This document shows, piece after piece, positions 44,111 to 62,362 of a stretch of DNA of 64,000 bases. The position numbers and the translations under genes are program-made. Position 1 is the stretch's first letter, and every line of letters starts with the position of its first letter. Location of the stretch: positions 152,898 to 216,897 of the forward strand of contig JABFGG010000003.1 of NCBI GenBank assembly GCA_013112575.1, written 5' to 3'. This stretch comes from Chloroflexota bacterium. GTDB taxonomy: Bacteria > Chloroflexota > Anaerolineae > Anaerolineales > UBA11579. The notes beneath the pieces were generated by a model. The model searched no databases and was not told the DNA's origin. It saw only the letters and a list, made by a program, of their open reading frames with translations.

Positions 44111-44758
44111 GTGGCTGAGTTAGAACTATCACGGGCAGGGGGCAGTACGGCTGACGCTGTGGCCGATGCCATACGCGAGTCGATACTGAAAGGGGATTTT
44201 AAAAGGGGAGTGGCTTTAAAGCAGGATGAACTGGCTGCTAAAGCGGGTGTTAGCAAAATCCCTGTGCGAGAGGCGCTGGTGAAACTGGAGGCGGAGGGAT
44301 TGGTGCAATTTTCACCGAATCGCGGGGCGGTAGTGGTTGATCTGTCTGTTGATGAAGTGCAGGAAATCACGCTGATGCGTATTGCGTTGGAGACTGTGCT
44401 CTTGAGGGAGGCCATTCCGTATTTGAAGATGCCAGAATATTCCCTAGCGGCAGGCCTGCTGAATGGTATTGCTAATGAACCAGATGCCTTTGAATGGGTG
44501 AAGCTTGATTGGGCGTTTCATGAAGCGCTTTATAAGGCGGCAAATTTGCCTAAGATTCTGAAAATGGCCCGGCAGCTCTACAACAACATGGCGCGATATA
44601 TGGTTGAGTTCCGATTAATTGCGACAGGGTTAAATTCCCAGCGGCAACACCGAGCTATCTTGAGGGCGAGCCGGAGAAAGAATGTTGGCCCAGCGAGCAG
44701 TTTTTTGGAGAACCATATACTAGATACAGGCAAGGCGATCATCGGGGCGATGAAATAG
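44111..44758 (+). CDS. GntR-family regulator, FadR subfamily (FCD domain)
   Basis: LKQDELAAKAGVSKIPVREALVKLEAEGLV HTH with an all-helical C-terminal domain. GTG start. Confidence 0.85.
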   Translation: MAELELSRAGGSTADAVADAIRESILKGDFKRGVALKQDELAAKAGVSKIPVREALVKLEAEGLVQFSPNRGAVVVDLSVDEVQEITLMRIALETVLLREAIPYLKMPEYSLAAGLLNGIANEPDAFEWVKLDWAFHEALYKAANLPKILKMARQLYNNMARYMVEFRLIATGLNSQRQHRAILRASRRKNVGPASSFLENHILDTGKAIIGAMK

Positions 44759-44762
44759 GATT

Positions 44763-44815
44763 TTGTAAAGGTCTTGACAGATACTTGATTAAATAGAACG
44801 TTTGTGCATAATTAA
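44763..44815 (+). promoter_or_regulatory. 53-bp promoter element, copy 1 (TTGACA ... TTGATT-16 nt-TGCATAAT)
   Basis: 49/53 identical to 59400-59452. TTGATT at 44785-44790, CATAAT at 44807-44812, preceded by TG. Confidence 0.55.
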
Positions 44816-44887: not shown

Positions 44888-46531
44888 TTGAAGATAAGTG
44901 ATGTGAAAGCAGCACAAGTGAATCAACCAACGCGTAAGCTGGATAAATGGGTCGAAGATGGGCCAAAGGCGTTTGGGCGATTTTATGCGGAAGTATTTGG
45001 GCGGGAATGCCCGCGGCACGCCATGGAAGAATGGATCAAACCATTGTATGCGGCGCGAGGCCTAGATAAAGGCTTGGTGATCGAGGCTTTCCGTGGGTCA
45101 AGCAAAACGACTACGGTGACGATCGGGTGGCTGGCATTTCAGATTGGGCTGAAGCCGCATAAGAGCTATATGCTGGTGCAGGTAGGGGATGAACTGGCAA
45201 AAGATACGGTGCAGGAAATTGCTGACCTGATCGAGTACAACCCCGGATGGCAAAGGGTTTTCCCGGATGTGGCAGCTGACCGTAAGGCAGGGTGGAGTAC
45301 GCGAGGGTATGAGGTCAAGCGGGTGGACATGGACTATGAGGATTGGCGACAATTGTGTGCCAATGAGAAAGGCAAAGACCCGAGCCTGGTGGGAATGGGA
45401 TACAAGTCGCGGGCGATCATTGGGAGACACCCAACAGGTGCGCTGATATTAGATGACATACATGATGAAAATAATACGCGGTCTGGGCGAGAATTAGCGA
45501 CGGTGATCAAGATCGTGCAAGGAACGATCTTGCCGACGGTGACGCCGGATACCTGGAAGGTGGCAGTCGGAACGCCGTGGCGAAGGGATGACGTGCTGGC
45601 ATATTTAAAGGGGACAGGGGAGTTCGAGAGTGTAAAGACGCCAGCGATAAGAGTCAAGGAAGCAGGAAGCAGGGATAAGGAATTAGGGTTGGGGGAGGGG
45701 AGCAAGGGGGCTATGGGAGCAGGGGAGCAAGGGGATAAAAGGAAAACGAAGAAAAAATGCAAAGAGTCTAAAGTCCCACAAAATTTTGAGGAGAGTATCT
45801 GGAAGGCAACGTGGTTTGAAGGCTTGCCATTAAAGGACGTGGAGAAGCAGCGGCGAGTGCTGGGTGAGGTGGAGTTCGCGCGAATGTATTTGCTGGACCT
45901 TGAGGCGGCAAGTGGTGTGCATTTGCGGTCAGGGTGGTTGCAGCGTTACCCGTACGAGGAAATCGGGAAGGATTGGCCGGTGGTGATGGGGGTGGACTAT
46001 GCTTCGGTGGCCGACCAGTTGAAGGCGAGTACGCGGGATTATTTCGCGGTGGCGATTGGGCGAGGTATCCCCGGTGGCGGTGTTGTATTGGTGGATGGCT
46101 TCCGGGGGAAAGTGTCGCAAGGCCAGGCTCAGCAGAAGCTGCAATCCATCGCCAGACAATATCCCACCTTGCAAACGATCGGGGTGGAGGCGGTGGGGAA
46201 GGGGGAGGAATTCTTCCATTTGATGCTGCGGACAAGCTGGCTGCCAGTGACACCGATGCAACCGGGGAGGAAAAGCAAGGGGTATCGCTTTGAGAAGGTG
46301 TTAGCGCCGATGTTCGAGTATGGGCGGGTAAAGGTTAGCTCGGCAGAGACACCATTCTTGCAGGCGTTTCGTGATGAGTGGGTGCGTTGGCCGTATGGTG
46401 AGCATGACGATACTTTGGATGCGGTGTATTGGATGTTGCAAGTGGCGAAACACCATATGGTGGTTGAAGAGGAGGGGGAGAGCCAGAAGCGAGAAAAAGT
46501 GAACCCGTTTGCGGAATTGGGGAGGGGATAA
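44888..46531 (+). CDS. terL: phage terminase large subunit
   Basis: Walker A-like FRGSSKTT, Walker B LILDDIHDE, nuclease motifs MGVDYA and HDDTLDAVYWML. TTG start is uncertain. Carries a low-complexity insert (see findings). Confidence 0.85.
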   Translation: MKISDVKAAQVNQPTRKLDKWVEDGPKAFGRFYAEVFGRECPRHAMEEWIKPLYAARGLDKGLVIEAFRGSSKTTTVTIGWLAFQIGLKPHKSYMLVQVGDELAKDTVQEIADLIEYNPGWQRVFPDVAADRKAGWSTRGYEVKRVDMDYEDWRQLCANEKGKDPSLVGMGYKSRAIIGRHPTGALILDDIHDENNTRSGRELATVIKIVQGTILPTVTPDTWKVAVGTPWRRDDVLAYLKGTGEFESVKTPAIRVKEAGSRDKELGLGEGSKGAMGAGEQGDKRKTKKKCKESKVPQNFEESIWKATWFEGLPLKDVEKQRRVLGEVEFARMYLLDLEAASGVHLRSGWLQRYPYEEIGKDWPVVMGVDYASVADQLKASTRDYFAVAIGRGIPGGGVVLVDGFRGKVSQGQAQQKLQSIARQYPTLQTIGVEAVGKGEEFFHLMLRTSWLPVTPMQPGRKSKGYRFEKVLAPMFEYGRVKVSSAETPFLQAFRDEWVRWPYGEHDDTLDAVYWMLQVAKHHMVVEEEGESQKREKVNPFAELGRG

Positions 46532-46638: not shown

Positions 46639-48672
46639 ATGGGTAAAAAACAGGATCTGAGCAAAAGACGAATGGAAGCTTTGAGGCGCGGGGACCTCGA
46701 AACGGCGGATAAGCTCTTACGGGAGTTGATGCCGCGGCAGCGCAGAGATCAGGAGGCGCATGATCTGGAAAAAGAGGCATTACGGGCAAGACGCAGTAAA
46801 AAGCTGCGGGACAGGAACACCTATGATGTGGTGGCCGGGGACAGCTTCTTTTCGGTGGCAAGTGAGGTGTTAGGGGATGCGCGGCTGGCGGGGGCATTAC
46901 TTGAGGCGAACCCGAATGTTTACGTGCTGCGTCCGGGGATGGTGTTGGACCTGCCGGAATTGGACACTGAAGCAGAAGAACCACCGTTGTTCTCGGAGGA
47001 GGCTTACCGCGATGCGCTGATCTCACAGGAGTTGGTGGATGCGATTGGAGGCGATCCGAGTGGGGCGCGTGTGGGGGATGAAGACGTGGAGATAGAAGCG
47101 GATGAGGAATTTGTGCAGGACAGCCAGGAGGCCTTGGCGGGTCTGGGAATGGAGGAAGAAGCCCTGGCAGAAGCGGTGGCAGACCTGCTGATAAACCTGG
47201 GGTATACCGATGTGCCAGTACCCAAAGTGATGGAGAAGCCTGCCGCACAAGTAGAAGAGGATATTGACGAAGAAACGTTTGAGGGGCCAGCCCTTGAGAC
47301 CGAAGAGTACCTAGGGGCAGATGTAAGTTTGGAGGATGGGCCGCAACAAGATGAAACCCCACCGTCACCAGATGACGAAGGAAAGCGCGGAACTAGGAAG
47401 GTAGAAGGTAAGGGGACGTCAGAACCGGAACCGGCGGTTGTTCCGACAGAGGAAGTAGAGCCGACCGAAGTTGTCAACGAGCCCCTGCCCAGCTATGAGG
47501 AACTGGTGATCGCTGAGGAGACGAACTGGCCGCAATGGGAGAATGCCTTAGAGAACTCAGGCATCGAATTGAGGGATAATGAGGGTGAACTGAATCTTGA
47601 GGAGATCAGCACTTTTATTGCGGAAGATATTGAAGTAAATAAAGAACGTTATGCCCAGGAATTGGGAATGACAGTTGATGAGTTGGCAGAGGTTTCAAAA
47701 GAAAGAGTAGAGATTTGGCTGGAGGCAGCTGAATTGCATGGCCAGTTAGATGTTTTTAACACCTCATTATTACTGAAGCAGAATGATCAAGATATTTTTG
47801 GAGTCAATATTGATGTCATGGTTGATGGGGCCCCGATGGGTTTGGATGCTTACATCGAAACTCAGAACGATGCAGATATTGAATCGACTCGGCTGAATTT
47901 TTCAATAGCGTTGGTAAATATGGGTTTTGCTTTGTCAGGTGTTTCTCCTGATTATGATGATCCGGGAGAGGTATTTCGGGATGTATTCGGTGATGTAACA
48001 ATCAAATTTGACAGCAAATATAGTCAGGGTTGGGGGTGCAAGACTAACTCGAGTCGAGAGGTCGTGTGTGGGAGTGGTGGGTTGAGTTACAGTATTCCGC
48101 AATATGGATATTTTGGTTTATATCCCGAAGTAATCATCCATGAATTGGGCCATGTTTTGCATAGTAGAATAGCGAGAAACTTGGCAATAGGTTTAGGACG
48201 AACCCCGAATAACGAAGATAAAGAACTGGAACAGATCTACAAGGACAAATTAAGCTTATTTGACCCCTATATTCGTCTCGGTAGCACGAGTTTATACTTA
48301 GACGAAGATTACACAGATGGTGAAGGAATTGTTTTCGCTGGGCCAGGAATTGCTGAGCGGAGTGAGTTAGGATGGCAGTATACGGATAGGGATGGTTACC
48401 TGTCAGATTTACCTTATCAGATACATGGTTATGAATTATTTCCGCTACCTAAAACTCCTGAAGAACGAGAAGATTATGATGATCCTAATAGCCCGAATGA
48501 AAGATTTGCAGATATGTTTTTAAACTGGGTACTAGACTCATTTGACTACACTGACTCTGCTCAAGGAGCTGGCCAAGCCATGTATGATTGGGTTGATGAA
48601 AATGCTGCTGATTTTGTGTATTTTGCATCTCACACGTATTCAGAAGAATGGGACAATAGAATTGAGAATTGA
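46639..48672 (+). CDS. LysM-domain protein with acidic linker and C-terminal HExxH metallopeptidase-like domain
   Basis: Basic N-terminus. LysM (YDVVAGDSFFSVASEVLGD...LRPGMVLDLP). A long Asp/Glu-rich middle. VIIHELGHVLH near the C-terminus. No signal peptide. Confidence 0.7.
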   Translation: MGKKQDLSKRRMEALRRGDLETADKLLRELMPRQRRDQEAHDLEKEALRARRSKKLRDRNTYDVVAGDSFFSVASEVLGDARLAGALLEANPNVYVLRPGMVLDLPELDTEAEEPPLFSEEAYRDALISQELVDAIGGDPSGARVGDEDVEIEADEEFVQDSQEALAGLGMEEEALAEAVADLLINLGYTDVPVPKVMEKPAAQVEEDIDEETFEGPALETEEYLGADVSLEDGPQQDETPPSPDDEGKRGTRKVEGKGTSEPEPAVVPTEEVEPTEVVNEPLPSYEELVIAEETNWPQWENALENSGIELRDNEGELNLEEISTFIAEDIEVNKERYAQELGMTVDELAEVSKERVEIWLEAAELHGQLDVFNTSLLLKQNDQDIFGVNIDVMVDGAPMGLDAYIETQNDADIESTRLNFSIALVNMGFALSGVSPDYDDPGEVFRDVFGDVTIKFDSKYSQGWGCKTNSSREVVCGSGGLSYSIPQYGYFGLYPEVIIHELGHVLHSRIARNLAIGLGRTPNNEDKELEQIYKDKLSLFDPYIRLGSTSLYLDEDYTDGEGIVFAGPGIAERSELGWQYTDRDGYLSDLPYQIHGYELFPLPKTPEEREDYDDPNSPNERFADMFLNWVLDSFDYTDSAQGAGQAMYDWVDENAADFVYFASHTYSEEWDNRIEN

Positions 48673-48694
48673 ATTGGTAAGTTTTGGATAAAAC

Positions 48695-49672
48695 ATGAGA
48701 AATGACAAGGGTCTTTTTCAACGAATTGGAGGAACAGTTATCGGAAGTTTAGTAAAGGTGCTGTTGCTTATCTTTTTTTTACTAGTCGTAATCTCCTTCG
48801 TGAGTTGTTCACCGACGAATAGATACGATCCAAGATTGCTCATAGAGAATGGTCTCCAAATGAGTTGGTCACCTTCTGGGAAGGAAATTGCATATGTTGC
48901 AGATCGTGAGGGCTCTGACACTCATGATCTCTATCTATATGATACTCAGACAGGAAATATTAGCCAGGTTACTGAATTAGATGGCCCTTATGCACCTGCG
49001 TTTCCTAGTTGGTCCCCAAATGGTCAAAAGCTTTCATTTGTCCTTTATTCTGAGGGTTTAGATATTGTCTTATTAGATTTTGGTAAGTTTGACGGAACCC
49101 CACTAGACAGCATTGAATTAAGAGAATTAATTGCAAAAGGGGTCCCACCGACTCAAACTGGAGAGATATATGCCTGGAACGACGACCCCCATTGGTCACC
49201 AGACGGTACAAAGATAGCGTTCATTTCCTGGCTGGAGGAGAATGTTGAAATCTACATAATGGATGAGGAAGGAGACAATGCAATCAAAATTGGAGAACAG
49301 GTTGGAAAAAATTATGAGCCTACTTGGTCACCGGATGGAAATTCGCTTGCTTTTGTATCAGACCGAGACGGAAACCTCGAAATCTATACAGTGAACCTCA
49401 TTAGTTTGGAAGTATCAAGAATAACTAATAGTTCAGAAATAGACCAGTCTCCTGATTGGTCTCCTGATGGGAAATGGCTCGTATTCGAATCGATGAGAAC
49501 AGGGAACTGGGATCTGTTTGCGTTTCACCTAGAGAGTGGGGAGTTGGTGCAACTGACTTTTGATGAGGCGGATGACTATACTGCTGATTGGTCGCCAGAT
49601 GGAAGCTTGATCGGGTTTACGTCTTTGCGATTAGGTGAAGCGGCTTTGTATGTGATCGATGCGCCGGAGTAG
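48695..49672 (+). CDS. TolB-like PD40 beta-propeller lipoprotein 1
   Basis: Lipobox FVSC. Repeated WSPDG/WSPNG blades. Confidence 0.8.
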   Translation: MRNDKGLFQRIGGTVIGSLVKVLLLIFFLLVVISFVSCSPTNRYDPRLLIENGLQMSWSPSGKEIAYVADREGSDTHDLYLYDTQTGNISQVTELDGPYAPAFPSWSPNGQKLSFVLYSEGLDIVLLDFGKFDGTPLDSIELRELIAKGVPPTQTGEIYAWNDDPHWSPDGTKIAFISWLEENVEIYIMDEEGDNAIKIGEQVGKNYEPTWSPDGNSLAFVSDRDGNLEIYTVNLISLEVSRITNSSEIDQSPDWSPDGKWLVFESMRTGNWDLFAFHLESGELVQLTFDEADDYTADWSPDGSLIGFTSLRLGEAALYVIDAPE

Positions 49673-49712
49673 TGTTTAGCAAAGTCGGATTTTCGTCAAA
49701 GGGGTTCTTTAG

Positions 49713-50666
49713 ATGAAATCAATATGGATAGTATTCTTTTGCTTGCTTGTTGTAAGTGGAACCGGATGTGGTTCTAACAACAGAATTCAAGACCGCATTC
49801 GGCTGACAAATAACCTTAGCATAGATATTTTGCCAGACTGGGCACCGGATGGAACACAAATCGCATTTGTACGTAGAGAGGAAGATAATAACAATGCTCA
49901 CCAAGTTTTTGCAGTTCATGTATTGAATCAGATCGAAGAGGAACTCCTCAATAATGAAACCAGTTACAGAATAGATGGACTTGGCTGGTTGCCTGACGGA
50001 GAAGAGATTGCTTTTTTAATATTTGGTGGAGACGTTGGCCCTGCAGTCGGCATACTATCTTATATTCAGGGGGAAATACCACCTCCGAGCATTTTAAAGA
50101 TGGAGGTATTACGCGGTTTGGGCGACCGAGCATTTGTATGGAACTTTGAATGGTCATCAAGTGGGGAAGAAATTGCAATCATACGAAACTATGATGATAG
50201 CATTGCTCCTGGCTTATACACCGTGAAAAGAGATAATACTGAGTTGCAACAAATAACGCAGGGTTACGGAGCCTGGGGGCCAAGTTGGTCTCCAGATGGG
50301 AATAGGATTGTGTTCGAGCATATTGGGGAAATCGATCCGAATGATACTGTGTTTATGTCTGATGAAAATGGAGAAATATACACCATCAAAGTAGATGGAA
50401 CAGAACTTTTCCAAGTGACTAATCACATCGCGAATGACTCTGAGCCTGAATGGTCACCAGCAGGAGATTGGATAGCATTTGTTTCTGAGAGAGATGGAAA
50501 CAAGGAGTTGTATGTAATTCGACCTGATGGTAGGGAACTCACACGACTAACTGAGGAAGAGGCAGACGACTATTCGCCAACCTGGTCGCCAGATGGAACA
50601 CAGATCGCGTTTGTGTCTGAACGGGATGGGAACCCTGAGCTATATATTATGGATGTGCCGGAGTAG
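49713..50666 (+). CDS. TolB-like PD40 beta-propeller lipoprotein 2
   Basis: Lipobox SGTGC. Repeated WSPDG/WAPDG blades. Confidence 0.8.
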   Translation: MKSIWIVFFCLLVVSGTGCGSNNRIQDRIRLTNNLSIDILPDWAPDGTQIAFVRREEDNNNAHQVFAVHVLNQIEEELLNNETSYRIDGLGWLPDGEEIAFLIFGGDVGPAVGILSYIQGEIPPPSILKMEVLRGLGDRAFVWNFEWSSSGEEIAIIRNYDDSIAPGLYTVKRDNTELQQITQGYGAWGPSWSPDGNRIVFEHIGEIDPNDTVFMSDENGEIYTIKVDGTELFQVTNHIANDSEPEWSPAGDWIAFVSERDGNKELYVIRPDGRELTRLTEEEADDYSPTWSPDGTQIAFVSERDGNPELYIMDVPE

Positions 50667-50856
50667 AAGATAGAAGGAGCTAGGGGGCAGAAGAAACAAA
50701 AGGTCCAGAAGGGCCAAAGGAGTTAAAAGCGTAGAGGTTTGACAATAGGGGCGTAGGGAAAACAAGAAGCAAGACTTGCTCAAGTAATTTTGAATAGCGG
50801 GGGGGGTGTGAGGGGAAATTGAACATTGTCCATTTTTCTATTTAAAGGAGTTAGCG

Positions 50857-52761
50857 GTGAAGAGTTTGAATTATTACCAGGGTTTGGCGAATGAGATGGT
50901 GCAGGCTGACCGGGGGCGAGATGCGATGCTGAGGGCGATGGATGATATGTGGCATAACCGGTGGAGTTTGCCAAAAGGGATAAGCAATTTGCGGTGGGTG
51001 CACAAGGTGGTGAGCACGGACCCGCACGATGCACTACGAGCAGGTACGCGGGTACTGAGTAGTGTGGAACCGCGCATCAAGCTGCAGCCGCTGGCACCCA
51101 ATGAGGCGACACGCGAAAAAACGGATGGCATTGAACGAGCACTGGGATGGCATTTCCGAAATGCGAGCAGGCGGCGGCGGGCGAATGTGCTGCGAGACGT
51201 GGTATTGAGCACATTGTTATATGATGAGGTGGTGGCGCAGGTAGTGTATCTACCGGAGCAGATCGAGGCGATGAAGGCGTTCAAGGGAGACACGCGACGC
51301 CTGGAGGCAGCACGACGATATGGGCCATTTTCGATCCTAGTGAGGAACCCGCGGCAGGTGCACGTGCGGTATTCGGACTGGATGCCGGAAAGTGTGTTGT
51401 TAAAGAAGGTGATGCGGGTGGGGGAGGTGGTCGATTTTTGGGGGACAAAGGCCAGGGGCTTAAAAAATAAGCTGAAGGAGCAGGGGAGTAAGGGAGTGGG
51501 GGGGAAGAAGGATTGGGAATATTGCACGGTGTATGACTACATGGACCTGGATGTGCGGGTGGTGTGGGCTGTGCCGCATGCCGGGGGAAGCATGGTGAGC
51601 GATCCTTTAGGGGATGCGGAGGGCACAGGCGGGGTGCAAATCTTGCGAGAGAAACATGATCTGGGTTTCTTGCCGTGGGTGGCTAAGGTGGGGGGCACGA
51701 CACTGGAAGATGAGGCGGCTTTCCAGCGGATGCCGTTGTTGGCTTCGATCTACCAGAGCGGACAGTGGGATACGCAAAACATCGTGGATACCTTGATGGC
51801 GAGCGAAGTGATCGCATATGCGGCTGCGCCTCGCTTGAAGGTGTCCGGGCCGACGGACCAGGTGGAAGTGGATTATGGCGAGCCGGGACGGCCAGCGTAC
51901 GTGCCACCGGGGCATGAATTGAGTGCGATGACGCCTCCGGGGCTGGACCAGAGTCTGGCGGTGCTGGCAGAGCGGATCGGAAGCCGGATGGCAAAAAGCA
52001 CAGTGCCGCGAGTGTTGCAGAGCGGGGATTTCCCATCGGGGACGGCGTTTTCGACGCTGAACCTGGCGACGCAGAGCGGGATCAAGTCATTGGCGCCGTA
52101 TAAAGAACTGGCTGAAGAGGCGCTGGTGGATGTGTTCACGCAGATGTTGTATTGGGTGAAATATGCCAATGAGCCTGTGCTGGCATTTGGAAAGAAACGC
52201 GATGATCCAGGCAGCCAGTACACGATCTACCCGAAGGATATTGACCTGGAGAGTGTTTACATGGAGGTTGAATTGACGGCGGATGTGCCGACAGACCGGA
52301 TGGCGCGCATCAACGCAGCCTCGATGGCGGTGCGGGACCTGAATTACTCAAAATCGCGGGCACTGGAACAGGTGGGCGAATCCGACCCGGGCTTCATCAT
52401 GGAGCAAGCGCGTGAGGAAACGCTGGATGAAGTTGACCTGGAAATTGAAAAACAACGTAAGCTGGCATTGGGGAAGCTGGAGATCGAGAAGATGGTGAAA
52501 GAGATACAGGAAGGGGAAGAGGAGGCGAAAGCGCCAGAGGAAGCAGAAGTATCAGAGGGGCCAGTGGCAGTAGCCGGGCAGCCCCAAAATATCCAAGAGC
52601 TATTAAAGCAGCCGAAGTTCCGGGAGCGTGTGCATGAGGTCATGGGGCAGGGGTTTAACCCGGCGGCGGGTGGCAGCCCTCCAGTGCAGGCAGACCCTGA
52701 ACTCAGCAATCGTAAAAAGCCAGCAACTACAAAGACAGGTGAAGAGGTCGCAGAGGTATAG
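50857..52761 (+). CDS. phage portal protein (candidate)
   Basis: 634 aa, lies between the terminase and capsid genes, acidic C-terminal tail, GTG start after AGGAG. The call rests on size and synteny, not on a recognised motif. Confidence 0.6.
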   Translation: MKSLNYYQGLANEMVQADRGRDAMLRAMDDMWHNRWSLPKGISNLRWVHKVVSTDPHDALRAGTRVLSSVEPRIKLQPLAPNEATREKTDGIERALGWHFRNASRRRRANVLRDVVLSTLLYDEVVAQVVYLPEQIEAMKAFKGDTRRLEAARRYGPFSILVRNPRQVHVRYSDWMPESVLLKKVMRVGEVVDFWGTKARGLKNKLKEQGSKGVGGKKDWEYCTVYDYMDLDVRVVWAVPHAGGSMVSDPLGDAEGTGGVQILREKHDLGFLPWVAKVGGTTLEDEAAFQRMPLLASIYQSGQWDTQNIVDTLMASEVIAYAAAPRLKVSGPTDQVEVDYGEPGRPAYVPPGHELSAMTPPGLDQSLAVLAERIGSRMAKSTVPRVLQSGDFPSGTAFSTLNLATQSGIKSLAPYKELAEEALVDVFTQMLYWVKYANEPVLAFGKKRDDPGSQYTIYPKDIDLESVYMEVELTADVPTDRMARINAASMAVRDLNYSKSRALEQVGESDPGFIMEQAREETLDEVDLEIEKQRKLALGKLEIEKMVKEIQEGEEEAKAPEEAEVSEGPVAVAGQPQNIQELLKQPKFRERVHEVMGQGFNPAAGGSPPVQADPELSNRKKPATTKTGEEVAEV

Positions 52762-52763
52762 TC

Positions 52764-54389
52764 ATGGGTGATAAGAATCGAGAGATCGCAGAGTATTACA
52801 AGAAACGAAGAAGAGGGGAACGGGATGATGAAATGCTGGACCGGATCGTGGGGGGAGGGAGGCGACAGCGAAGGGCCAAGGCTGAGGAGAGGGAGGCCAA
52901 ACGGGAGTATCGAAAAAAGCGTAGCCTGTTACAAAATGCGTACACGGTGCAGCTGGGCGATAGCTGGTTCAGCATTGCGGGGAGCGAAATGGGAGACCAG
53001 CGCTATGCAGGAGACCTGGCGAGGGCAAACCCGGGGTTTGACGTATTGAAGCCGGGGACGGTAATCATGCTGCCGCCTGCGGGGGGAGAGGAGACACCTA
53101 TCCTGACATACGAAGATTATGAGATGTTGGAGGGTATTCAGGAAAAGGTGGAAGAGGCACAAGAGCCGCCGGTGACAGCAGCAAACAGCCCAGTCTATGG
53201 TGATCCTGCAGGAATAGAAGCGGAACACGACATGATACAAGCCTATTTGGATAGGCAAGAAGCGGATGAGACTCCTGTAGATGAAGAGGCGAATGGACTG
53301 GAGGAGGAATTCAATGTGGCGGATTATGAGGCGGAGGCGCAAGCGATAGCACAGATGTTGTTGGAGATGCAAGCTTTGCGTGAGCAGGAGGAAGAGGGGT
53401 CAATAAAGGTGGCGGCCCTTGCGCAGGATGTTGTTTTGCAGGAAGAAACGCAAGAGCAAAAAGAAGCAAATGAATTGTTGGATACCTGGTTTCAGACCCA
53501 AGTAGCAGATATGAAAATCCTGGGGCAGGATAATTACCGTGCAATTCATAATGAGTACAAGGCATTACAAAATGGAATTAGCCAGGGTAGCGTTACGCGT
53601 AATGAAATGTTTAGAAGGGTATATGGAACGGAATATGTGCCGACCCCCACACCAACGCCTACAGAGGGATTGCCCCCACCTATTGTAGAAGTACGGCCAT
53701 TAGAAACTGATACACCTGAGCCTATTCTCACACCAGAGCCTATTCGAATACCTACTGCAGAACCTACAGCAGCAAATTGGGTAGAGGTCTTGGAGTCGTA
53801 TGCTCCAATGAATGGGGATGGATTTTTTGTTTCAGGAAATCGTCATGGGACAGAAATACTTAAAGGATTGCATGTGGGTGTTGACATTGCCGCAGATGAC
53901 CGTATTGTTGAGGCCAATGTGGCGGGGAAAGTGTACTTCTTCCAGACCCTCAAGGGTGCTGGAGGAATAATCGAAACAAGAGCCTTTGACCCTGCATTGG
54001 AATACCCTGAAAATGATGATAGTTATGAGGACTTTGGGAATTATGTAGTGCTCGTAAGTGAATTCAACGGTGAGACTTACTATCAAGTCTTTGCTCATTT
54101 AGAGTCATTCAGTCATGATTTTCAGAATGGTGATGAAGTGCCCGCTGGAACTTTATTAGGGGAAATGGGGAAAACAGGCGCTACTGAAGAGTATCATGTC
54201 CATTGGGAGATTCGAACAGAGGACGGAGTCAATATAGATGAAAATGGGGTGATTCGATTTGATATTTTTGAACGGGTTTTAGCGGACGGCACATATCCTA
54301 CCTATTATGCGCAATCAGAGGAAGAGTTAGAGCAGTTTACAATTAACCCATATGATTTCACTAATCTGCTGAATTCTATTGACAATTAA
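52764..54389 (+). CDS. LysM-domain protein with acidic linker and C-terminal M23 peptidase domain
   Basis: Start lies 2 nt after the portal stop. Basic N-terminus. LysM (YTVQLGDSWFSIAGSEMGD...LKPGTVIMLPP). M23 motifs HVGVDIAA and YHVHWEIR. Confidence 0.75.
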   Translation: MGDKNREIAEYYKKRRRGERDDEMLDRIVGGGRRQRRAKAEEREAKREYRKKRSLLQNAYTVQLGDSWFSIAGSEMGDQRYAGDLARANPGFDVLKPGTVIMLPPAGGEETPILTYEDYEMLEGIQEKVEEAQEPPVTAANSPVYGDPAGIEAEHDMIQAYLDRQEADETPVDEEANGLEEEFNVADYEAEAQAIAQMLLEMQALREQEEEGSIKVAALAQDVVLQEETQEQKEANELLDTWFQTQVADMKILGQDNYRAIHNEYKALQNGISQGSVTRNEMFRRVYGTEYVPTPTPTPTEGLPPPIVEVRPLETDTPEPILTPEPIRIPTAEPTAANWVEVLESYAPMNGDGFFVSGNRHGTEILKGLHVGVDIAADDRIVEANVAGKVYFFQTLKGAGGIIETRAFDPALEYPENDDSYEDFGNYVVLVSEFNGETYYQVFAHLESFSHDFQNGDEVPAGTLLGEMGKTGATEEYHVHWEIRTEDGVNIDENGVIRFDIFERVLADGTYPTYYAQSEEELEQFTINPYDFTNLLNSIDN

Positions 54390-54485: not shown

Positions 54486-55136
54486 ATGAATAATATAATC
54501 AAACGTAGAAAAAAGACTGTGGTAATTGTGAGTTTCGCAATACTCATATTGACCGGGTGTCAAAGTGGAATACTCACTGTCCCTACCCAAACTCAGGAGG
54601 TGAAGCCAATATTTGCCCCTGAGCCAACTCTTGAAGGCTCGTGGGCAGGTTTGCCATTCGGCGAGAACTGGGAGCTCAGAGTCGTTGGGGCGGATGAGGA
54701 GCGGGAAAACCCCTGGTTGTATGCTTACTTTGAAGGGCAGGAAGTCCTGGCGAATAGAGATTATGAGGGCTGCGAGTTGACCTATTGGTTTGGTTCTGGG
54801 GAAGGAATAGATGAGTTTGGGGAATTCCCTGAATTCTTTTCTTATATCTCTTTTGAGCAAAAGATAGGAGGAAATGATTTTGGTGTTATTCTCCATCTTT
54901 TAGAAGGAGAACTCGATTATATTAAATATGTCTTTGACTCAAAGATATACGGGGCATCCAACGTATATGAAAATGGATATGTTGGTACTTTGCGTCTTCG
55001 ATTGATCGATACCGAGATCGATCCATGCATCCAAGAAACGAAGTGGCTATTAGCGGAGATAGACCCAAGTGGGATGTATGCGATGCGAGATCCATTCATG
55101 GAATGGAATAATGTGAGGCGATTTGGGGATGAATAA
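54486..55136 (+). CDS. lipoprotein of unknown function, paralog A
   Basis: Lipobox ILTGC. About 90 percent DNA identity to 58398-58952. Confidence 0.6.
   Translation: MNNIIKRRKKTVVIVSFAILILTGCQSGILTVPTQTQEVKPIFAPEPTLEGSWAGLPFGENWELRVVGADEERENPWLYAYFEGQEVLANRDYEGCELTYWFGSGEGIDEFGEFPEFFSYISFEQKIGGNDFGVILHLLEGELDYIKYVFDSKIYGASNVYENGYVGTLRLRLIDTEIDPCIQETKWLLAEIDPSGMYAMRDPFMEWNNVRRFGDE
54618..55136 (+). repeat. direct repeat copy A (about 0.52 kb)
   Basis: Aligns with 58398-58952 at a 3780-bp offset. For example, CCTGAGCCAACTCTTGAAGGCTCGTGGGCAGGTTTGCCA is identical in both. Confidence 0.8.
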
Positions 55137-55175: not shown

Positions 55176-56126
55176 ATGAGAACATTGTGGATTCCTGTGA
55201 TTTATTTGCTTTTTGTTGTGGGGTGTAAAGGCTTTTGGGAAGAGCCGCGGCTAGAAGGTCACATAGCGTTCATGATGGAAGTGGAAGGGAATCATGATAT
55301 TTACATCATGGAACCCAATGGGGACAATGTCAGAAGATTAACGGACCACGCTGCTTATGATATGGAACCGGCCCTCTCCCCTGATGGGCAAAAAGTCGTT
55401 TTCGTTTCAGATCGCGATAAGAATTGGGATATCTACATGGTGGATGTGGACGGTAGTAATGTAACCCAGCTTACATTTTCCTCTATGGCGAATGAGAGCT
55501 TTGAAGAGTTTTCAAAAGCACTTGATTGGGGAACACACTGGTCTCCGGATGGGAGATGGATCGCATTCCAGTCGCAGCGAGACGGCAATGCTGAGATATA
55601 CGTAATGCGCTCGGATGGGAGCAATCAAAAAAGATTGACCTTTCACCCAGCGGATGATGCTCTGCCGACATGGTCGCCAGACGGTACACAAATAGGTTTC
55701 ATGTCTGCGAGGCCAAGTCCAGTAGACATCCCTGTGCGGAACTTTGATACCTATCTGTTGGACACAGAAAGTGGTGTAGTCAGTAGAGTAACTGAATATG
55801 TTGGCCTGGATGGGCCTCCTGTATGGTCACCAGATGGAGATCTGATAGCCATCGCCTCGGAACGAGAAGGGGGACAAAGAATATTCATTGTAGATGTCAG
55901 TAGTGGTGAATGGCGATTATTGACGGAGGCGTATGATGAGGGAAATGAAGAGTTTAATGGAGAGCTAGATGGAGAGATACGTGAGGGTTCTGAAAGTTGG
56001 TCACCAGATGGTAATTGGCTGGTGTTAACCTACGGAGCCAAGATCTGTACGATACATAAAGAGGGACATAGTTTGAATTGTATTGAAGGAATAAGTCGTG
56101 CAGCACAGCCTGATTGGGGACCGTGA
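55176..56126 (+). CDS. TolB-like PD40 beta-propeller lipoprotein 3
   Basis: Lipobox VVGC. Repeated SPDG blades. Confidence 0.8.
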   Translation: MRTLWIPVIYLLFVVGCKGFWEEPRLEGHIAFMMEVEGNHDIYIMEPNGDNVRRLTDHAAYDMEPALSPDGQKVVFVSDRDKNWDIYMVDVDGSNVTQLTFSSMANESFEEFSKALDWGTHWSPDGRWIAFQSQRDGNAEIYVMRSDGSNQKRLTFHPADDALPTWSPDGTQIGFMSARPSPVDIPVRNFDTYLLDTESGVVSRVTEYVGLDGPPVWSPDGDLIAIASEREGGQRIFIVDVSSGEWRLLTEAYDEGNEEFNGELDGEIREGSESWSPDGNWLVLTYGAKICTIHKEGHSLNCIEGISRAAQPDWGP

Positions 56127-56219
56127 TTCTTGGGGAAGGAATAGCTAAAGAGACCTTCAAAACTCTTGCAAAATAAGTTTAGATGGCTCTTGAAGCGCGA
56201 AGTGAAAGCAGAGTGATTG

Positions 56220-57149
56220 ATGAGTAATGGGATTTTGATCTATCTAGCGAAACTTTGGTTTTCATTAGTTTTATCTGGTTTGTTTGTGGCTAGCTGTACT
56301 TTCCTTGAATCGACAACAAAACCGGAGGGTCAATTACTATTTGTTGGAGAATCTGAAGATGGGTTAGATTCTGAAGCTTTTGTTTACAATTTAGAAAAAG
56401 AAATCACAAACCAATTGACAGATAATGAAATCACTGATTATTATGCAAAATTTTCGGCTGATGGCAAGCAAATTGCGGTGGCTGCGGGGTTACCAATGCC
56501 GGGAATAGTATTAGTAGATATAGAAACTCAAGACCTTTATCAATTGACTAATGAGGAAACTTTAGTTGGTTATTTATCCTGGTCATCTGATGGGGAGTGG
56601 ATTGCCTTTTCCAAAGATATGGATTCAGGTTCTGTCAATTCAGATATTTATAGAGTAAATATTGACAATAGTACAGTCTCTAAATTCTTTGGCACGGACG
56701 GCAATGACATTCGTGTATTATGGTCACCTGATGGAAACCAAGTAGCATTCAGTTCAAATTTTGAGGCTATTGAATTTAACGACTATGATGTATATGTTTA
56801 CGAGATTGATGATGCTAGTATTGTTAGATTGACATTTGAAGATTCGGATGATGCACCGCTATCCTGGTCTCCAGATGGGAAATACTTAATTGTGTCTTCT
56901 GGAACTGGACTAGATAATCAGGATAAGCGGTTTTTCTTGTTAGAGGTTGATACAGGCAACAAAGAACCTCTAATCGAAGATAAAAATTATTCAACAGGAA
57001 AAAATGAGAATTCTGCAATTTGGTCACCTGATGGGAATTGGATCGCTATAGATGTGGATGGCAGGATTTGTATTATGGATCTGAAGGGTGAACTCTACGA
57101 TTGCTATACGGAAGGATATAAATATATATTGACTGATTGGGGGCCGTGA
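56220..57149 (+). CDS. TolB-like PD40 beta-propeller lipoprotein 4
   Basis: Lipobox FVASC. WSSDG/WSPDG blades. ATG at 56220 (the track uses TTG at 56217). Confidence 0.75.
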   Translation: MSNGILIYLAKLWFSLVLSGLFVASCTFLESTTKPEGQLLFVGESEDGLDSEAFVYNLEKEITNQLTDNEITDYYAKFSADGKQIAVAAGLPMPGIVLVDIETQDLYQLTNEETLVGYLSWSSDGEWIAFSKDMDSGSVNSDIYRVNIDNSTVSKFFGTDGNDIRVLWSPDGNQVAFSSNFEAIEFNDYDVYVYEIDDASIVRLTFEDSDDAPLSWSPDGKYLIVSSGTGLDNQDKRFFLLEVDTGNKEPLIEDKNYSTGKNENSAIWSPDGNWIAIDVDGRICIMDLKGELYDCYTEGYKYILTDWGP

Positions 57150-57182
57150 AATTTGAGTGTCGGGAATGATGAAGTAATAAAA

Positions 57183-58091
57183 ATGGTGAGGCAAATATAT
57201 CTTCTAATACTAGTTTCGTTGATGATGATTGGATGCAGTCGAATTGAAGAGCAGCAAATTGCTTTTCATACGGGTACGGTAATGATCGACGCGCAAATCT
57301 ACGTAGTGGATCTGAATGGACAAAACCTAACACAGCTAACTGACAGCCGCGGCTCCAATTCGGCTCCGACCTGGTCGCCTGATGGCAGCCAGATTGCTTT
57401 TGTGTCCACACGGGACACGAATTTTGAAATCTATATCATGAACGCAGATGGGAGTGGACAATACAATTTCACAGAGAGCCGGGCCCACGATAGGAACCCA
57501 ACGTGGTCTCCTGATGGGAAATGGATCCTCTTTGAATCACGAGTCAATGACACAGAATATCGCGATCTCTATCGTAAGAATGTGGAGACTGGTGAATTAG
57601 TCCAACTGACGGACACTCCAGAACTGGCTGAGTTCCACCCAGCATGGTCAACAGATGGAAGTCAAATCGCATTCTCAGTCCTTAATAAGGACGCTGCTTT
57701 GGATATCTACATCATGGACAAAGATGGAGGTAACGTAGAGCGAATCACTGGGGAGATAAGAAACGTTGACTATCCGATATGGGGAAGATCTGGAGATAAA
57801 ATCTATTTTGTCACATTTGGGTGGTTTGAAGTAGGCAAGCGTGAGATTGTTGCATATGATCTGGAAACAGGTGAATTGAGCCAAATAAGTTTTGATGGTC
57901 AGCCCAAGGGGGAATTTGTGATTACGCCGGATGGTTCAAATATCCTGTTTGAATCCTCCGTGGAGATAGGTCAAAATGAGGATGGGATCAGATTAACGCG
58001 TGGAGCAATCTTTGTCATGAATATTGACGGGACAGGATTGGAATTGCTGCCTATTTATATCAGTGCCAGTGGTGTTGCGTGGAGGCCGTGA
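57183..58091 (+). CDS. TolB-like PD40 beta-propeller lipoprotein 5
   Basis: Lipobox MMIGC. WSPDG/WSTDG blades. The ATG at 57183 is preferred over the TTG at 57153. Confidence 0.75.
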   Translation: MVRQIYLLILVSLMMIGCSRIEEQQIAFHTGTVMIDAQIYVVDLNGQNLTQLTDSRGSNSAPTWSPDGSQIAFVSTRDTNFEIYIMNADGSGQYNFTESRAHDRNPTWSPDGKWILFESRVNDTEYRDLYRKNVETGELVQLTDTPELAEFHPAWSTDGSQIAFSVLNKDAALDIYIMDKDGGNVERITGEIRNVDYPIWGRSGDKIYFVTFGWFEVGKREIVAYDLETGELSQISFDGQPKGEFVITPDGSNILFESSVEIGQNEDGIRLTRGAIFVMNIDGTGLELLPIYISASGVAWRP

Positions 58092-58176: not shown

Positions 58177-58244
58177 ATGCCAAATGGTAAAATCTGCCGC
58201 CAAGGTTTGAGAAGAAGAGGGATGGATATTTGTAGGAGCCCTTG

Positions 58245-58952
58245 ATGCTGACTAATTGTTTAAGCGTATTTCGTTCGTATTGCTTCCTTTTTAGCTGCTT
58301 GATATTTGTTGGTGCCTGTAGTTCTGTAGGGAATAGCGGAGAAGAGGGATTAGTTCCTGCTGCTATTCAAACTGAGGAAGCGAAGACAGTATTCGTCCCT
58401 GAGCCAACTCTTGAAGGCTCGTGGGCAGGTTTGCCATACGGTGAAAACTGGGAGCTCAGGGTTGTTGAAGAGGATGAGGAGCGGGTAGACCACGAGTTGT
58501 ATACTTACTTTGGGGAGCGGGCAGACCGCTGGTTGTATGCTTACTTTGAAGGGCAAGAAGTCCTTGTGAATAGAAATCATGATGGCTGCGAGTTGACCTA
58601 TTGGTTTGGTTCGGGGGAAAGAGGAGAAGAGTTTGGGGAAGGCCCTGAATTTCTTTCTACTATCTCTTTTGAGCAAAATTTAGGAGGGAATGATTTTGAT
58701 GTTATTCTCAATCTTGTGGCCGGAAAACTCGATTACATTAAATATATCTTTGACTCAAAGATATACGGAGCATCCAACGTATATGAAAATGGGTATCTTG
58801 GTACTTTGCGACTTCGATTGATCGATACCGAGATCAATCCATGCATCCAAGAAACGAAGTGGCTATTAGCGGAGATAGATCCGAGTGGGATGTATGCGAT
58901 GCGAGATCCATTCATGGAATGGAATAATGTGAGGCGATTTGGGGTTCCATAG
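58245..58952 (+). CDS. lipoprotein of unknown function, paralog B
   Basis: ATG after AGGAG. Lipobox FVGAC. Carries a 15-codon internal duplication relative to paralog A. Confidence 0.6.
   Translation: MLTNCLSVFRSYCFLFSCLIFVGACSSVGNSGEEGLVPAAIQTEEAKTVFVPEPTLEGSWAGLPYGENWELRVVEEDEERVDHELYTYFGERADRWLYAYFEGQEVLVNRNHDGCELTYWFGSGERGEEFGEGPEFLSTISFEQNLGGNDFDVILNLVAGKLDYIKYIFDSKIYGASNVYENGYLGTLRLRLIDTEINPCIQETKWLLAEIDPSGMYAMRDPFMEWNNVRRFGVP
58398..58952 (+). repeat. direct repeat copy B (about 0.55 kb)
   Basis: See copy A. Confidence 0.8.
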
Positions 58953-58962
58953 ATGGGTACAG

Positions 58963-58989
58963 AAAAGGACACCCATGGGTGTCCTTTTT
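58963..58989. terminator. bidirectional terminator between lipoprotein B and rpsU
   Basis: AAAAGGACACCC/GGGTGTCCTTTT palindromic stem with A/T runs on both sides. Confidence 0.75.
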
Positions 58990-59009
58990 ATGTGTTGAAT
59001 TTGGGGTGA

Positions 59010-59213
59010 TCAGCGGCGGCGGTTACGTTGGGAAACACGACGGCGGGCGCGGCGGATGGCTTTCTTCTTTTGAATGCGGCGCTCTTCGGATTTGGAGACG
59101 AACCAGCGTTTGCGGCGGATGTCACCGAGGACCCCGCTGCGGGTAACGGTCTTGCGGAAGCGGCTATAAAGCTGCTGCTGCGACTCGTTGGAGCGTAATT
59201 CTACTTTTGGCAC
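59010..59213 (-). CDS. rpsU: 30S ribosomal protein bS21
   Basis: VPKVELRSNESQQQLYSRFRKTVTRSGVLGDIRRKRWFVSKSEERRIQKKKAIRRARRR fits the S21 pattern. GTG at 59211-59213 lies 7 nt after AAAGGAGGTGA. Confidence 0.85.
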   Translation of the reverse strand: MPKVELRSNESQQQLYSRFRKTVTRSGVLGDIRRKRWFVSKSEERRIQKKKAIRRARRRVSQRNRRR

Positions 59214-59399
59214 TGGAGGTTCACCTCCTTTCATATAAAGCGTAATCGCTTTGTTTTTGGCCTATGAACTGACCGAGCGGGATTATACCTTGGGGAGGGG
59301 AAGTGTACAAGGGCGCGACAATGTGGGGGGAAGATGAAGGTTCGGACACGGACGAGGCATGCCTCGCCCCTACAAAATCTCCAACAATTCCGCGTAGGC

Positions 59400-59452
59400 T
59401 TGTAAAGGTCTTGACAAAGGCTTGATTAAATAGAACATTTGTGCATAATTAA
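59400..59452 (+). promoter_or_regulatory. 53-bp promoter element, copy 2
   Basis: TTGACA at 59411-59416, TTGATT at 59422-59427, CATAAT at 59444-59449. 4 mismatches to copy 1. Confidence 0.55.
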
Positions 59453-59510
59453 GGGCACAAGCAAACCCGAGCTGGGGGCTAGAGAACGGATGACCTCAAA
59501 GGAGCAGGAA

Positions 59511-60116
59511 ATGACAGAAGCACTGGAGAGCGGCGCTAAACGCGAGGAAGCTGGTGAAAACAGCCAGGTTTCGACAGCACAGCGTGACGAGCAAACTTCA
59601 GGTGAAGTTGAACGGCCAAATTCCCCACTGGAAAAGCAGATCGAGGAGCACATTGCTTCGGAGGTGGAGCGACGGTTCCAGAGTGCAAAAGATAAACGGT
59701 GGGCGCAACTTGAGCGGCAGTATGGGGCTTTGAGTGAGTTACAAAAGGCAATGGACGGGCAGGATGAAATTCAAGCCACTGATGACAACTGGGTGATCGA
59801 TAAAGCCCAGGGGTTGTTAAAAATGGCGGGATTGGAAAACGATCCGGAAGTAAGCGCGTTGTTGAGAGAGAAGCCCTATGGTGCGGATAATGATGGCTAC
59901 GTGGCCCTATTGAGTGATCTGACCGAGGTGGTTTTGCGACGCAATAGTCGTGGGCCCACAAATGGGGCGGCGGTGGCCCAGCCAAGTGGTGGCCTGCCTG
60001 TGAATGACCTGAGAGAGGATTATGAGTTACGAAAACGCCAACTCGTTGCGGGGGATGTGAATGCGCTAATGGCTTTGAAACGAGAGTTCCGGGCGAAGGG
60101 TTTGGATATTTTTTAG
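59511..60116 (+). CDS. scaffolding-like protein (acidic, helical), immediately upstream of the capsid gene
   Basis: ATG at 59511 lies 6 nt after AAGGAG. The track start at 59439 lies inside the promoter. Charged helical composition and position support the call. Confidence 0.45.
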   Translation: MTEALESGAKREEAGENSQVSTAQRDEQTSGEVERPNSPLEKQIEEHIASEVERRFQSAKDKRWAQLERQYGALSELQKAMDGQDEIQATDDNWVIDKAQGLLKMAGLENDPEVSALLREKPYGADNDGYVALLSDLTEVVLRRNSRGPTNGAAVAQPSGGLPVNDLREDYELRKRQLVAGDVNALMALKREFRAKGLDIF

Positions 60117-60200
60117 CAGTGAGCCTTTAGCTGTGAGTAGATAATTATTAGAAATTTCCTCACGGTGAATGGGCATTAGTGGTTTATCAGGAGAAGGTAA

Positions 60201-61331: not shown

Positions 61332-61383
61332 GCCTGAGTTATAGCCTGGGGGTGACTGTGCTAGTCACTCCTATATAACAAAA

Positions 61384-61448
61384 GGCGGAGCGGGCAGGCG
61401 GCGCAACAATTATTGGTGAATAAACGACTGGCCCGCTCCGCCAGCGGG
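61384..61448 (+). other. GC-rich stem structures downstream of the capsid gene
   Basis: GGCGGAGCGGGC (61384-61395) pairs with GCCCGCTCCGCC (61431-61442). An overlapping local hairpin CCCGC...GCGGG is followed by GATTTTA. Confidence 0.4.
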
Positions 61449-62360: not shown

Positions 62361-62362
62361 AA

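Follow-up and report, generated by a model that had tools for sequence, protein, structure and literature searches.

Among the head and packaging genes of a prophage-like element from a Chloroflexi metagenome-assembled genome, two are mosaics in which a 5' LysM module encoded by the phage backbone is fused to a 3' half that comes from an AT-rich cassette of lipoprotein genes. The element lies in a stretch of 64,000 nucleotides (nt) from a Chloroflexota bacterium (Anaerolineales; UBA11579), namely positions 152,898-216,897 on the forward strand of contig JABFGG010000003.1 in assembly GCA_013112575.1, which we call the window and whose own numbering is used below. The two open reading frames (ORFs), ORF A after the gene of the large terminase TerL and ORF B after the portal gene (Table 1), share their N-terminal layout and end in different enzymes. 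We regard it as moderately probable that these mosaic LysM genes have their enzymatic ends swapped together with the cassettes, and that their products are wall hydrolases carried in the phage particle.

A reading of the sequence alone had placed a switch from GC-rich to AT-rich composition inside each gene, at ~47.55 and ~53.45 kb. A two-segment likelihood change-point analysis puts it at nt 47548 in ORF A (support, given as the 2-log-likelihood interval, 47519-47614), where guanine-plus-cytosine content (GC) falls from 0.567 to 0.409, and at nt 53428 in ORF B (support 53398-53470), where it falls from 0.547 to 0.428. Amino acid (aa) composition can be ruled out as the cause, since the shift is equally strong at third codon positions (GC3): the GC3 change-point log-likelihood ratios of 22.7 for ORF A and 14.3 for ORF B lie above those of all 1000 codon shuffles (p<0.001), and among the 38 genes of the window the shift ranks first in ORF A and third in ORF B. 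Synonymous-codon usage in the N-terminal halves correlates with that of the phage backbone (r = 0.78 for ORF A and 0.76 for ORF B), while the C-terminal halves follow the lipoprotein genes of the cassettes (r = 0.78-0.80) and each other (r = 0.83), and correlate with their own N-terminal halves at r = 0.60 and 0.44. Both C-terminal halves run on into tightly packed AT-rich lipoprotein genes, and the low-GC 1-kb windows of the whole stretch are concentrated in these two cassettes.

The same breaks appear when the window is aligned with L001, a long-read contig from ENA (5.5x) that holds the one close relative of ORF A. Along the backbone the two are ~78% identical at the nt level; this identity is lost at 47474 and 53005, within the two genes, and regained at 50826 and 58962, beyond the cassettes. 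The L001 orthologue of ORF A, P0002, is near-identical by BLASTP up to residue ~280-296 and entirely different thereafter (75% aa identity over aa 1-257 by tblastn); its own GC falls from 0.538 to 0.401 at residue 287, and two PD40 lipoprotein genes come next. In ORF A the breaks in composition, codon usage and homology fall within ~25-70 nt of each other. That the C-termini arrived together with the downstream lipoprotein genes, as the sequence-only reading had proposed, is supported both by their cassette-like codon usage and by the coincidence of the breaks in L001. The further expectation that composition breakpoints would mark domain boundaries holds in part. They coincide with the end of the conserved N-terminal module, which in ORF A ends at aa ~280-296 against a GC breakpoint at aa 304 and in ORF B at aa ~202 against a breakpoint at aa 222; this places them within the linker, however, and the catalytic domains follow 120-140 residues later.

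The backbone-encoded modules of the two proteins are paralogous, with 33% identity over the N-terminal ~200 aa (BLASTP, E=5e-19), and have the single layout that had been ascribed to them of a basic N-terminus, one LysM domain and an acidic linker. Residues 1-60 carry a net charge of +8 in ORF A and +9 in ORF B, and a strong excess of acidic residues gives the linkers net charges of -49 and -28, respectively. Scored as single sequences against Pfam PF01476, the LysM domains reach 11.9 bits in ORF A and 16.7 bits in ORF B, below the cut-off of 20.9. Their identity as LysM is nevertheless established, because the homologous protein of locus L007 passes that cut-off with 27.3 bits, because a profile built from seven family members matches solved LysM domains (4uz2, E=9.1e-8, and also YaaH, Kbp, SafA and YkuD), and because the modelled fold superposes on them. 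In the AlphaFold2 (AF2) model of the ORF B module, a strand at 59-61, helices at 68-76 and 79-88 and a strand at 100-102 (predicted local distance difference test, pLDDT, 87-93) form a beta-alpha-alpha-beta unit (residues 59-102) that fits LysM structures to 1.4-2.5 A over ~48 residues, with a Foldseek probability of up to 1.00. The domain is predicted to bind peptidoglycan in both proteins. Its best Foldseek neighbours are LysM subunits of phage and contractile-injection particles, and the LysM region of ORF A also matches phrog_380.

Neither protein contains a hydrophobic segment fit for a signal peptide or a membrane helix, the highest 19-aa Kyte-Doolittle mean being 1.24 in ORF A and 0.66 in ORF B, in agreement with the absence of signal peptides noted at the outset. 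The public annotation of ORF B (P0003, 480 aa) begins at the GTG of residue 62, inside the first LysM strand, and leaves out 52764-52946. We use the longer start at 52764, which is supported by the paralogy with ORF A, by the L001 orthologue, which aligns with aa 1-97, and by a ribosome-binding site: the start lies 2 nt past the portal stop codon and is preceded by GAGG.

The C-termini of ORF A and ORF B are mutually unrelated and carry the two different peptidase domains recognised from the sequence, with an HExxH motif in ORF A and M23 in ORF B. In ORF A the motif reads HELGH (residues 501-505, nt 48139-48153), and H501, E502, H505 and a downstream E621 (in NERFADMF; nt 48499-48501) are invariant across 22 homologues. 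HExGH with a distal glutamate resembles the signature of gluzincins, with E621 as the putative third ligand. No Pfam, NCBIfam or PHROG family was found for this C-terminus or for that of P0002, and PDB sequence searches with both returned empty or chance-level matches only. The AF2 model of the ORF A C-terminus (pLDDT 81; predicted template modelling score, pTM, 0.83) gave insignificant fold matches, to anthrax lethal factor in the PDB (E=0.55) and to a 'lethal factor' fragment in BFVD (E=0.11).

Searches with whole proteins yielded 2 matches each for ORF A and ORF B, the word filter being probably dominated by the acidic linkers, and the C-terminal domain alone was needed to find the family. 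When ORF A residues 301-677 were compared with 1.84 billion representatives in a full HMMER search, 50 homologues were retrieved. In P0012, P0018, P0026, P0028 and P0038 the domain sits directly behind an RHS core (TIGR03696 above cut-off), and in P0021 and P0043 it follows N-termini that look WXG/LXG-like by eye, without a family match. Given these partners, the zincin-like domain of ORF A belongs to the pool of C-terminal domains used by polymorphic toxins. Its closest homologue, P0005 in locus L028, comes from a partial gene whose N-terminus is missing; this gene (GC 0.44) is followed by a PD40 lipoprotein gene (GC 0.50), the other genes of the contig being at 0.61 GC.

The assignment of ORF B is to a known family. 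Residues 422-490 match Peptidase_M23 (PF01551) with 53.3 bits, above the cut-off of 28.7, and the motifs HVGVD at residue 370 (nt 53871-53885) and HVH at 478 (nt 54195-54203) are intact and align with those of P0004, a LysM-M23 protein 35% identical over aa 369-541, and of gp28 of the cyanopodophage A4. The latter, a capsid-internal pre-ejectosome protein, is also the best solved match (9k2v chain E, E=1.1e-6). ORF B further matches endolysin PHROGs and, weakly, the NCBIfam families of DipM, NlpD and ActS.

The exchange of C-termini is apparent from related loci. A portal search recovered 26 further loci, across which the portal is 57-76% identical in aa sequence; a scan of viral contigs with the portal profile found nothing. 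The portal itself, which has no Pfam or PHROG match, is 36% identical to the gene after TerL in the complete podovirus genome MW202608.1. A LysM gene directly follows the portal in L002, L007, L008, L014, L029, L030 and MW202608.1. Some of these forms lack an enzyme, with 62 aa in L008 (66 contigs), 72 aa in L002, 127 aa in L029 and 168 aa in L030, the last consisting of the N-terminal module only; the form in L014 has >153 aa, the contig ending within the gene. In L007 the post-portal gene encodes LysM, an acidic Pro/Thr-rich linker and a lysozyme of glycoside hydrolase family 19 (GH19) type (SPN1S endolysin 4ok7, E=1.6e-7); its GC falls from 0.566 to 0.422 at nt 4684, and a PD40 gene lies downstream. 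Across these loci there are four different C-termini (zincin, M23, GH19 and the P0002 domain) beside several forms without any. The prediction of exchangeable warheads therefore finds its counterparts in the unrelated end of P0002, in the GH19 protein of L007 and in the enzyme-less forms, no single combination of N- and C-terminus being fixed. A diversity-generating retroelement was considered as well and set aside, as neither a reverse transcriptase ORF nor a template/variable repeat pair was seen.

Two side observations concern these relatives. One frameshift divides the GH19 end in L007 into two overlapping ORFs (4824-4885), and it may reflect a sequencing error, decay or programmed frameshifting. 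A very hydrophobic protein of 51 aa is encoded right after the short LysM gene in L008 (12072-12227) and L029 (7050-7205), and no equivalent was seen in the window.

TerL directly abuts the portal in L014, L019, L021, L022 and MW202608.1, which identifies ORF A and its two PD40 genes as an insertion. ORF B holds the ancestral post-portal position, and its diverged paralogue ORF A entered the TerL-portal junction along with its cassette. Elsewhere the same slot holds other cargo: three opposite-strand genes resembling leucine-rich repeat (LRR)/Roc-COR proteins in L002 (4148-9809), a GGDEF gene in L003 (316-1098) and a protein of ~347-350 aa in L008 (8929-9972). The TerL-portal junction is thus a cargo hot spot in relatives, also in L006 and L029, and the L008 protein shows a Cys...His pattern that looks peptidase-like by eye, with no family match.

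Lipoprotein genes stand after every extended LysM form and travel with its C-terminus, in arrays of 2 to 5 that encode proteins of 216-325 aa. PD40 lipoproteins follow the unrelated HExxH, P0002 and GH19 C-termini, and follow M23 after an intervening lipoprotein; they also match DPPIV_N. The 44 kb of host sequence on the left side of the element contain no PD40 paralogue. In cassette 2 the small lipoprotein genes lipo1 and lipo2, which have no Pfam, NCBIfam or PHROG family, are 72% identical in aa and 80-88% in nt sequence and form a direct repeat, spaced by 3.8 kb, around the three PD40 genes; through this repeat the cassette could be duplicated or deleted. The PD40 genes of cassette 1 keep 78-80% nt identity to PD40 genes of L001 only at their 3' ends (49451-49672 and 50567-50671), in swapped order, and GC3 rises there from 0.34-0.35 to 0.54-0.55. 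These ends may be recombination anchors, or else conserved last blades of the propeller. A promoter and terminator scan of the cassettes was uninformative, with terminators at chance level.

Judged by genomic context and by analogy with particle proteins of podoviruses, ORF A and ORF B would most likely be wall hydrolases borne by the virion. The suggestion from the sequence alone that they are packaged in the capsid or ejected has indirect support in the conserved post-portal position, the separate endolysin of the element and the match of M23 to A4 gp28. For A4, it has been proposed that the lytic transglycosylase and M23 domains of gp28 breach the host wall at infection (PMC12002296). The complete 41.8-kb podovirus MW202608.1 has the gene order TerL, portal, a 461-aa "lysin motif" protein, a 2156-aa protein, a scaffold-like gene and the major capsid protein (MCP), and the N-terminus of its lysin-motif protein matches our family profile (hhalign probability 97.4%, E=1.5e-11). 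As this phage additionally encodes XhlA and a PlyB-like endolysin elsewhere, the post-portal LysM protein is a conserved feature of the lineage that is distinct from the endolysin. Together with the particle subunits among the Foldseek neighbours of the LysM unit, this favours a role in the particle. The 2156-aa protein (L032/L033, 19748-26218) has a weak SHOCT match only and by its position could be a giant internal or ejection protein.

How the system might work can be proposed as follows. As in polymorphic toxin loci, cassettes would be exchanged through recombination at a point of the linker that closely follows the conserved module and its helix, with the conserved PD40 3' ends or the next backbone gene as possible anchors on the right. 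ORF A and ORF B would be made late with the head genes; they have no secretion signal and would be carried in the particle, either inside the capsid or close to the portal. On infection they would be released into the wall, where LysM would anchor the enzyme on peptidoglycan and the warhead would cut locally. More speculatively, the co-transferred lipoproteins might neutralise or modulate the enzymes at the surface of the lysogen, for which Tsi1, an inhibitor of the wall hydrolase Tse1, is a precedent.

The most credible alternative, although we think it rather unlikely, is an effector-immunity system in which the C-termini are toxins aimed at other bacteria or at hosts of superinfecting or competing phages, and delivered by the particle or on lysis, with the PD40 and small lipoproteins as cognate immunity proteins that would shield the carrier cell at its membrane surface. 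It would account for the RHS-linked and WXG/LXG-like relatives of the ORF A domain and for the recurrence of an HExxH domain with a PD40 lipoprotein in L028, and the joint movement of a variable C-terminus and its downstream genes is a hallmark of polymorphic toxins (PMC3482391, PMC5576092). Tsi1, which confers immunity to the peptidoglycan hydrolase Tse1, is moreover a partial DPP-IV-like beta-propeller (PMC3391265), to be compared with the DPPIV_N matches of the PD40 proteins, and an element reduced to structural and lysis genes resembles the 'prophage remnants' proposed as capsid-based toxin delivery. However, PD40 genes come after at least three unrelated C-terminal types, and after M23 as a fourth via an intervening lipoprotein, which argues against specific pairing of toxin and immunity. 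Immunity ORFs of the MuF type are small (<150 aa; PMC5576092), unlike the arrays described above, and the cassette genes match no known immunity family, PADLOC giving only a weak repeat-level match and no known defence system. A wider version, to which we give less credence, would see in the LysM proteins and lipoprotein arrays a phage-borne effector-immunity system: the particle would bring in a wall- or protein-cutting warhead anchored by LysM, and the PD40 and small lipoproteins on the membrane of the lysogen would neutralise warheads that match them, leading to superinfection exclusion or to kin protection against related particles. The ~24-kb element could then be a domesticated delivery particle akin to a gene transfer agent (GTA) or a tailocin. 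We rank below both of these the possibility that the two proteins are endolysins or lysis accessories, in which LysM would bind the wall and the C-terminus would cut it from within late in the lytic cycle, the mosaics being due to ordinary modular shuffling. Endolysins are typically built from such parts as LysM with M23 or GH19, the PHROG matches of both proteins and the SPN1S match of L007 fit this role, and holin-dependent endolysins likewise have no signal peptide. Nevertheless, the element already has, ~13 kb downstream of ORF B, a GH25 endolysin (phrog_291, E=2.9e-24) next to two small holin-like membrane proteins, where late operons usually end, and for this reason ORF A and ORF B are probably not endolysins; they have no adjoining holin-like gene and lie among terminase, portal and capsid genes, outside the lysis cassette. 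MW202608.1 likewise has its own lysis genes besides the post-portal LysM protein, and the short relatives of 62-168 aa keep the post-portal position without a catalytic domain.

An uncoupled accident is, in our view, very improbable: AT-rich 'moron' cargo of lipoprotein genes would have inserted into the 3' part of a small LysM gene, giving a fortuitous read-through fusion with no joint function, or assembly or binning would have made a chimera. The window does come from a metagenome-assembled genome, and both slots are hot spots for unrelated cargo such as the LRR/Roc-COR, GGDEF and 347-aa genes. Yet both C-termini are complete, in-frame domains with intact catalytic motifs, and the same logic of fusion recurs in L001, which rests on long reads, in L007 and probably in L028. 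An assembly artefact was rejected in view of this recurrence in independent assemblies; the exact sequence of ORF A is present on 8 contigs from NCBI and Logan assemblies, and one Logan contig matches 5 kb of the window at 100% identity.

Several observations weigh against our preferred reading of cassette-swapped, particle-borne wall hydrolases. The relatives of the ORF A domain are RHS-linked toxin-type domains and not known wall hydrolases, and Pfam and PHROG searches detected no similarity of the N-terminal module to MuF or to a known capsid or ejection protein. The extended relatives are few, and so are the independent swaps; in L001 the ORF B region is riddled with frameshifts and unreadable for comparison. 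PD40 genes of the window and of L001 are still 30-47% identical, and part of the difference between cassettes could be fast divergence instead of replacement. Finally, no integrase, replication or small-terminase gene was found in the element as seen on both sides, and it may be a defective prophage, domesticated or GTA-like, that perhaps makes no infectious particles.

Table 1. Coordinates of the prophage-like element and its two cassettes in the window.
Feature	Position (nt)	Strand	Observations
GntR-family regulator	44111-44758	+	upstream of TerL
53-nt promoter-like repeat TTGATT-16-CATAAT	44763-44815 and 59400-59452	+	upstream of TerL and of the scaffold gene; copies 92% identical
Large terminase TerL	44888-46531	+	phrog_38 E=2.6e-54; Terminase_6C match; ~79% nt identity to L001; GC-rich backbone
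ORF A, 677 aa	46639-48672	+	open reading frame confirmed
ORF A N-terminal module	46639-47547	+	basic helices aa 1-60, LysM aa 61-108, acidic linker with conserved helix aa 109-303; GC 0.567
ORF A AT-rich C-terminal half	47548-48672	+	pre-domain aa 304-423, zincin-like HExxH domain aa ~424-671; GC 0.409
PD40 beta-propeller lipoprotein 1 (cassette 1)	48695-49672	+	PD40 E=4e-42; lipobox VSFVSC; GC3 0.38
PD40 beta-propeller lipoprotein 2 (cassette 1)	49713-50666	+	PD40 E=1e-38; lipobox SGTGC; GC3 0.38
Portal protein	50857-52761	+	GC-rich backbone; assigned by position between TerL and scaffold/MCP
ORF B, 541 aa	52764-54389	+	open reading frame confirmed
ORF B N-terminal module	52764-53426	+	basic helices aa 1-58, LysM aa 59-105, acidic linker with conserved helix aa 106-221; GC 0.546
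ORF B AT-rich C-terminal half	53427-54389	+	linker, Pro/Thr-rich stretch aa 290-335, M23 peptidase aa ~360-500; GC 0.429
lipo1, small lipoprotein (cassette 2)	54486-55136	+	no family; paralogue of 58242-58952
Three PD40 beta-propeller lipoproteins (cassette 2)	55176-56126, 56217-57149, 57153-58091	+	PD40 E 1e-19 to 1e-44; lipoboxes; GC3 0.30-0.45
lipo2, small lipoprotein	58242-58952	+	right end of cassette 2; direct-repeat partner of lipo1
Ribosomal protein S21 homologue	59010-59234	-	Ribosomal_S21 44.7 bits; backbone
Putative scaffold protein	59439-60116	+	by position alone
Major capsid protein MCP	60201-61331	+	phrog_1328 E=4.5e-52; SU10_MCP match; backbone resumed, 78% nt identity to L001

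The element as a whole spans ~24 kb and consists of structural and lysis genes. Its right-hand part was followed in the Logan contig L034, which is identical to the window over 58915-64000 and adds 8.4 kb rightward; the part of the element past the window's right end, of ~7 kb, corresponds to L034 3449-10170 (window ~62363-69084). The extension encodes an 864-aa protein, several small proteins (one of them phrog_644), a Laminin_G_3 protein, the GH25 endolysin and the two small membrane proteins, and then continues into the host genes PadR and PolX. The S21 homologue, which separates the post-portal genes from those of scaffold and capsid and is read from the other strand, is kept at that spot in L001 (20444-20758), L004 (~2793-2924) and L008 (12325-12555). 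Both copies of the 53-nt repeat are present in L001 too (8135-8200 and 20741-20793), and the repeat is probably a shared late promoter or operator. To the left of the element, a host gene (38792-40396) encoding SdrD_B followed by the N- and C-terminal domains of DUF3048 shows the only other strong intragenic GC3 shift of the window, from 0.36 to 0.60 at codon 203 (log-likelihood ratio 15, p<0.001), which sits at the SdrD_B/DUF3048 boundary. In L001 a gene built in the same way (6186-7868) immediately precedes the related element, a hint of a common chromosomal neighbourhood.

Among known systems the closest are the MuF polymorphic toxins of temperate phages, to which ORF A and ORF B do not belong for want of a MuF domain: no MuF-type Pfam family, PF04233 and PF06152 included, matched either protein at E<=0.01 or the N-terminal fragments at E<=10. 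The gene of a MuF toxin directly follows that of the portal (Jamet et al. 2017, PMC5576092), and the toxins are predicted to be loaded into the phage head (Zhang et al. 2012, PMC3482391). ORF B has the corresponding place just downstream of the portal in the packaging and head module, ORF A lying instead after TerL. In both systems short forms occur beside forms with C-terminal extensions, the extensions are variable toxin or enzyme domains common to other polymorphic-toxin families (~20% of MuF toxins carry metallopeptidases), the downstream genes travel with the C-terminal domain, a secretion signal is lacking and delivery from within the capsid is predicted. However, the carrier here is a module of basic helices, LysM and acidic linker, and while MuF toxins act in the cytoplasm, two of the four C-termini in our loci are peptidoglycan hydrolases (M23 and GH19), the other two being the zincin and an unassigned domain. 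Where MuF toxins have one small downstream ORF, our loci have lipoprotein arrays, and the element carries two paralogous copies of the gene; MuF hosts are Firmicutes, whereas the present element is from Chloroflexi. Measured against the description of polymorphic toxins by Zhang et al. 2012, our loci show a conserved N-terminal region with alternative C-termini (ORF A against P0002, L007 against P0054) and, in the ORF A zincin, a C-terminal domain common to RHS families.

The two proteins also recall phage particle components and bacterial wall regulators. gp16 of phage T7 is a virion-associated wall hydrolase and ejection protein. With the podovirus ejection and virion hydrolases represented by A4 gp28 (PDB 9K2V, PMC12002296), ORF B shares an M23 domain on a protein encoded among head genes, and the element has an SU10-type capsid; nevertheless, there is no similarity to gp28 outside M23, and ejection proteins are large helical bundles, in contrast to a small LysM module with a long acidic linker. 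The LysM tail and injection subunits (P2 gpX/Phage_tail_X, 9gtp, 7aeb and gp61 of phiCD508) are likewise small proteins that contain LysM or consist of it, and they include the best Foldseek neighbours; one short relative scores 16.3 bits with Phage_tail_X, below the Pfam threshold. gpX is comparable in size to the short LysM relatives of 62-72 aa. Unlike these subunits, our genes lie next to the portal and not in a baseplate cluster, and no contractile-tail genes were identified in the element. The order of N-terminal LysM, linker and C-terminal M23 in ORF B is that of the bacterial NlpD, DipM and LytM-like regulators. The M23 active site of NlpD is degenerate, whereas that of ORF B is intact; moreover, ORF B has neither signal peptide nor lipobox, is phage-encoded, abuts the portal gene and is a mosaic in composition.

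If our interpretation is right, phage-head-associated polymorphic proteins would include a second, unrelated carrier, based on LysM and not on MuF, and the group would extend to Chloroflexi and to wall-degrading warheads. New features are the carrier module, the host phylum, the co-occurrence of wall-hydrolase with RHS-type warheads, and the lipoprotein arrays that accompany them. The recombination junctions are unusually clean, and RHS-type toxin domains, phage lysin domains and arrays of beta-propeller lipoproteins are joined in one exchangeable cassette system. Should the lipoproteins be inhibitors, they would represent a new mechanism of prophage-mediated exclusion and a source of matched pairs of wall hydrolases and inhibitors.

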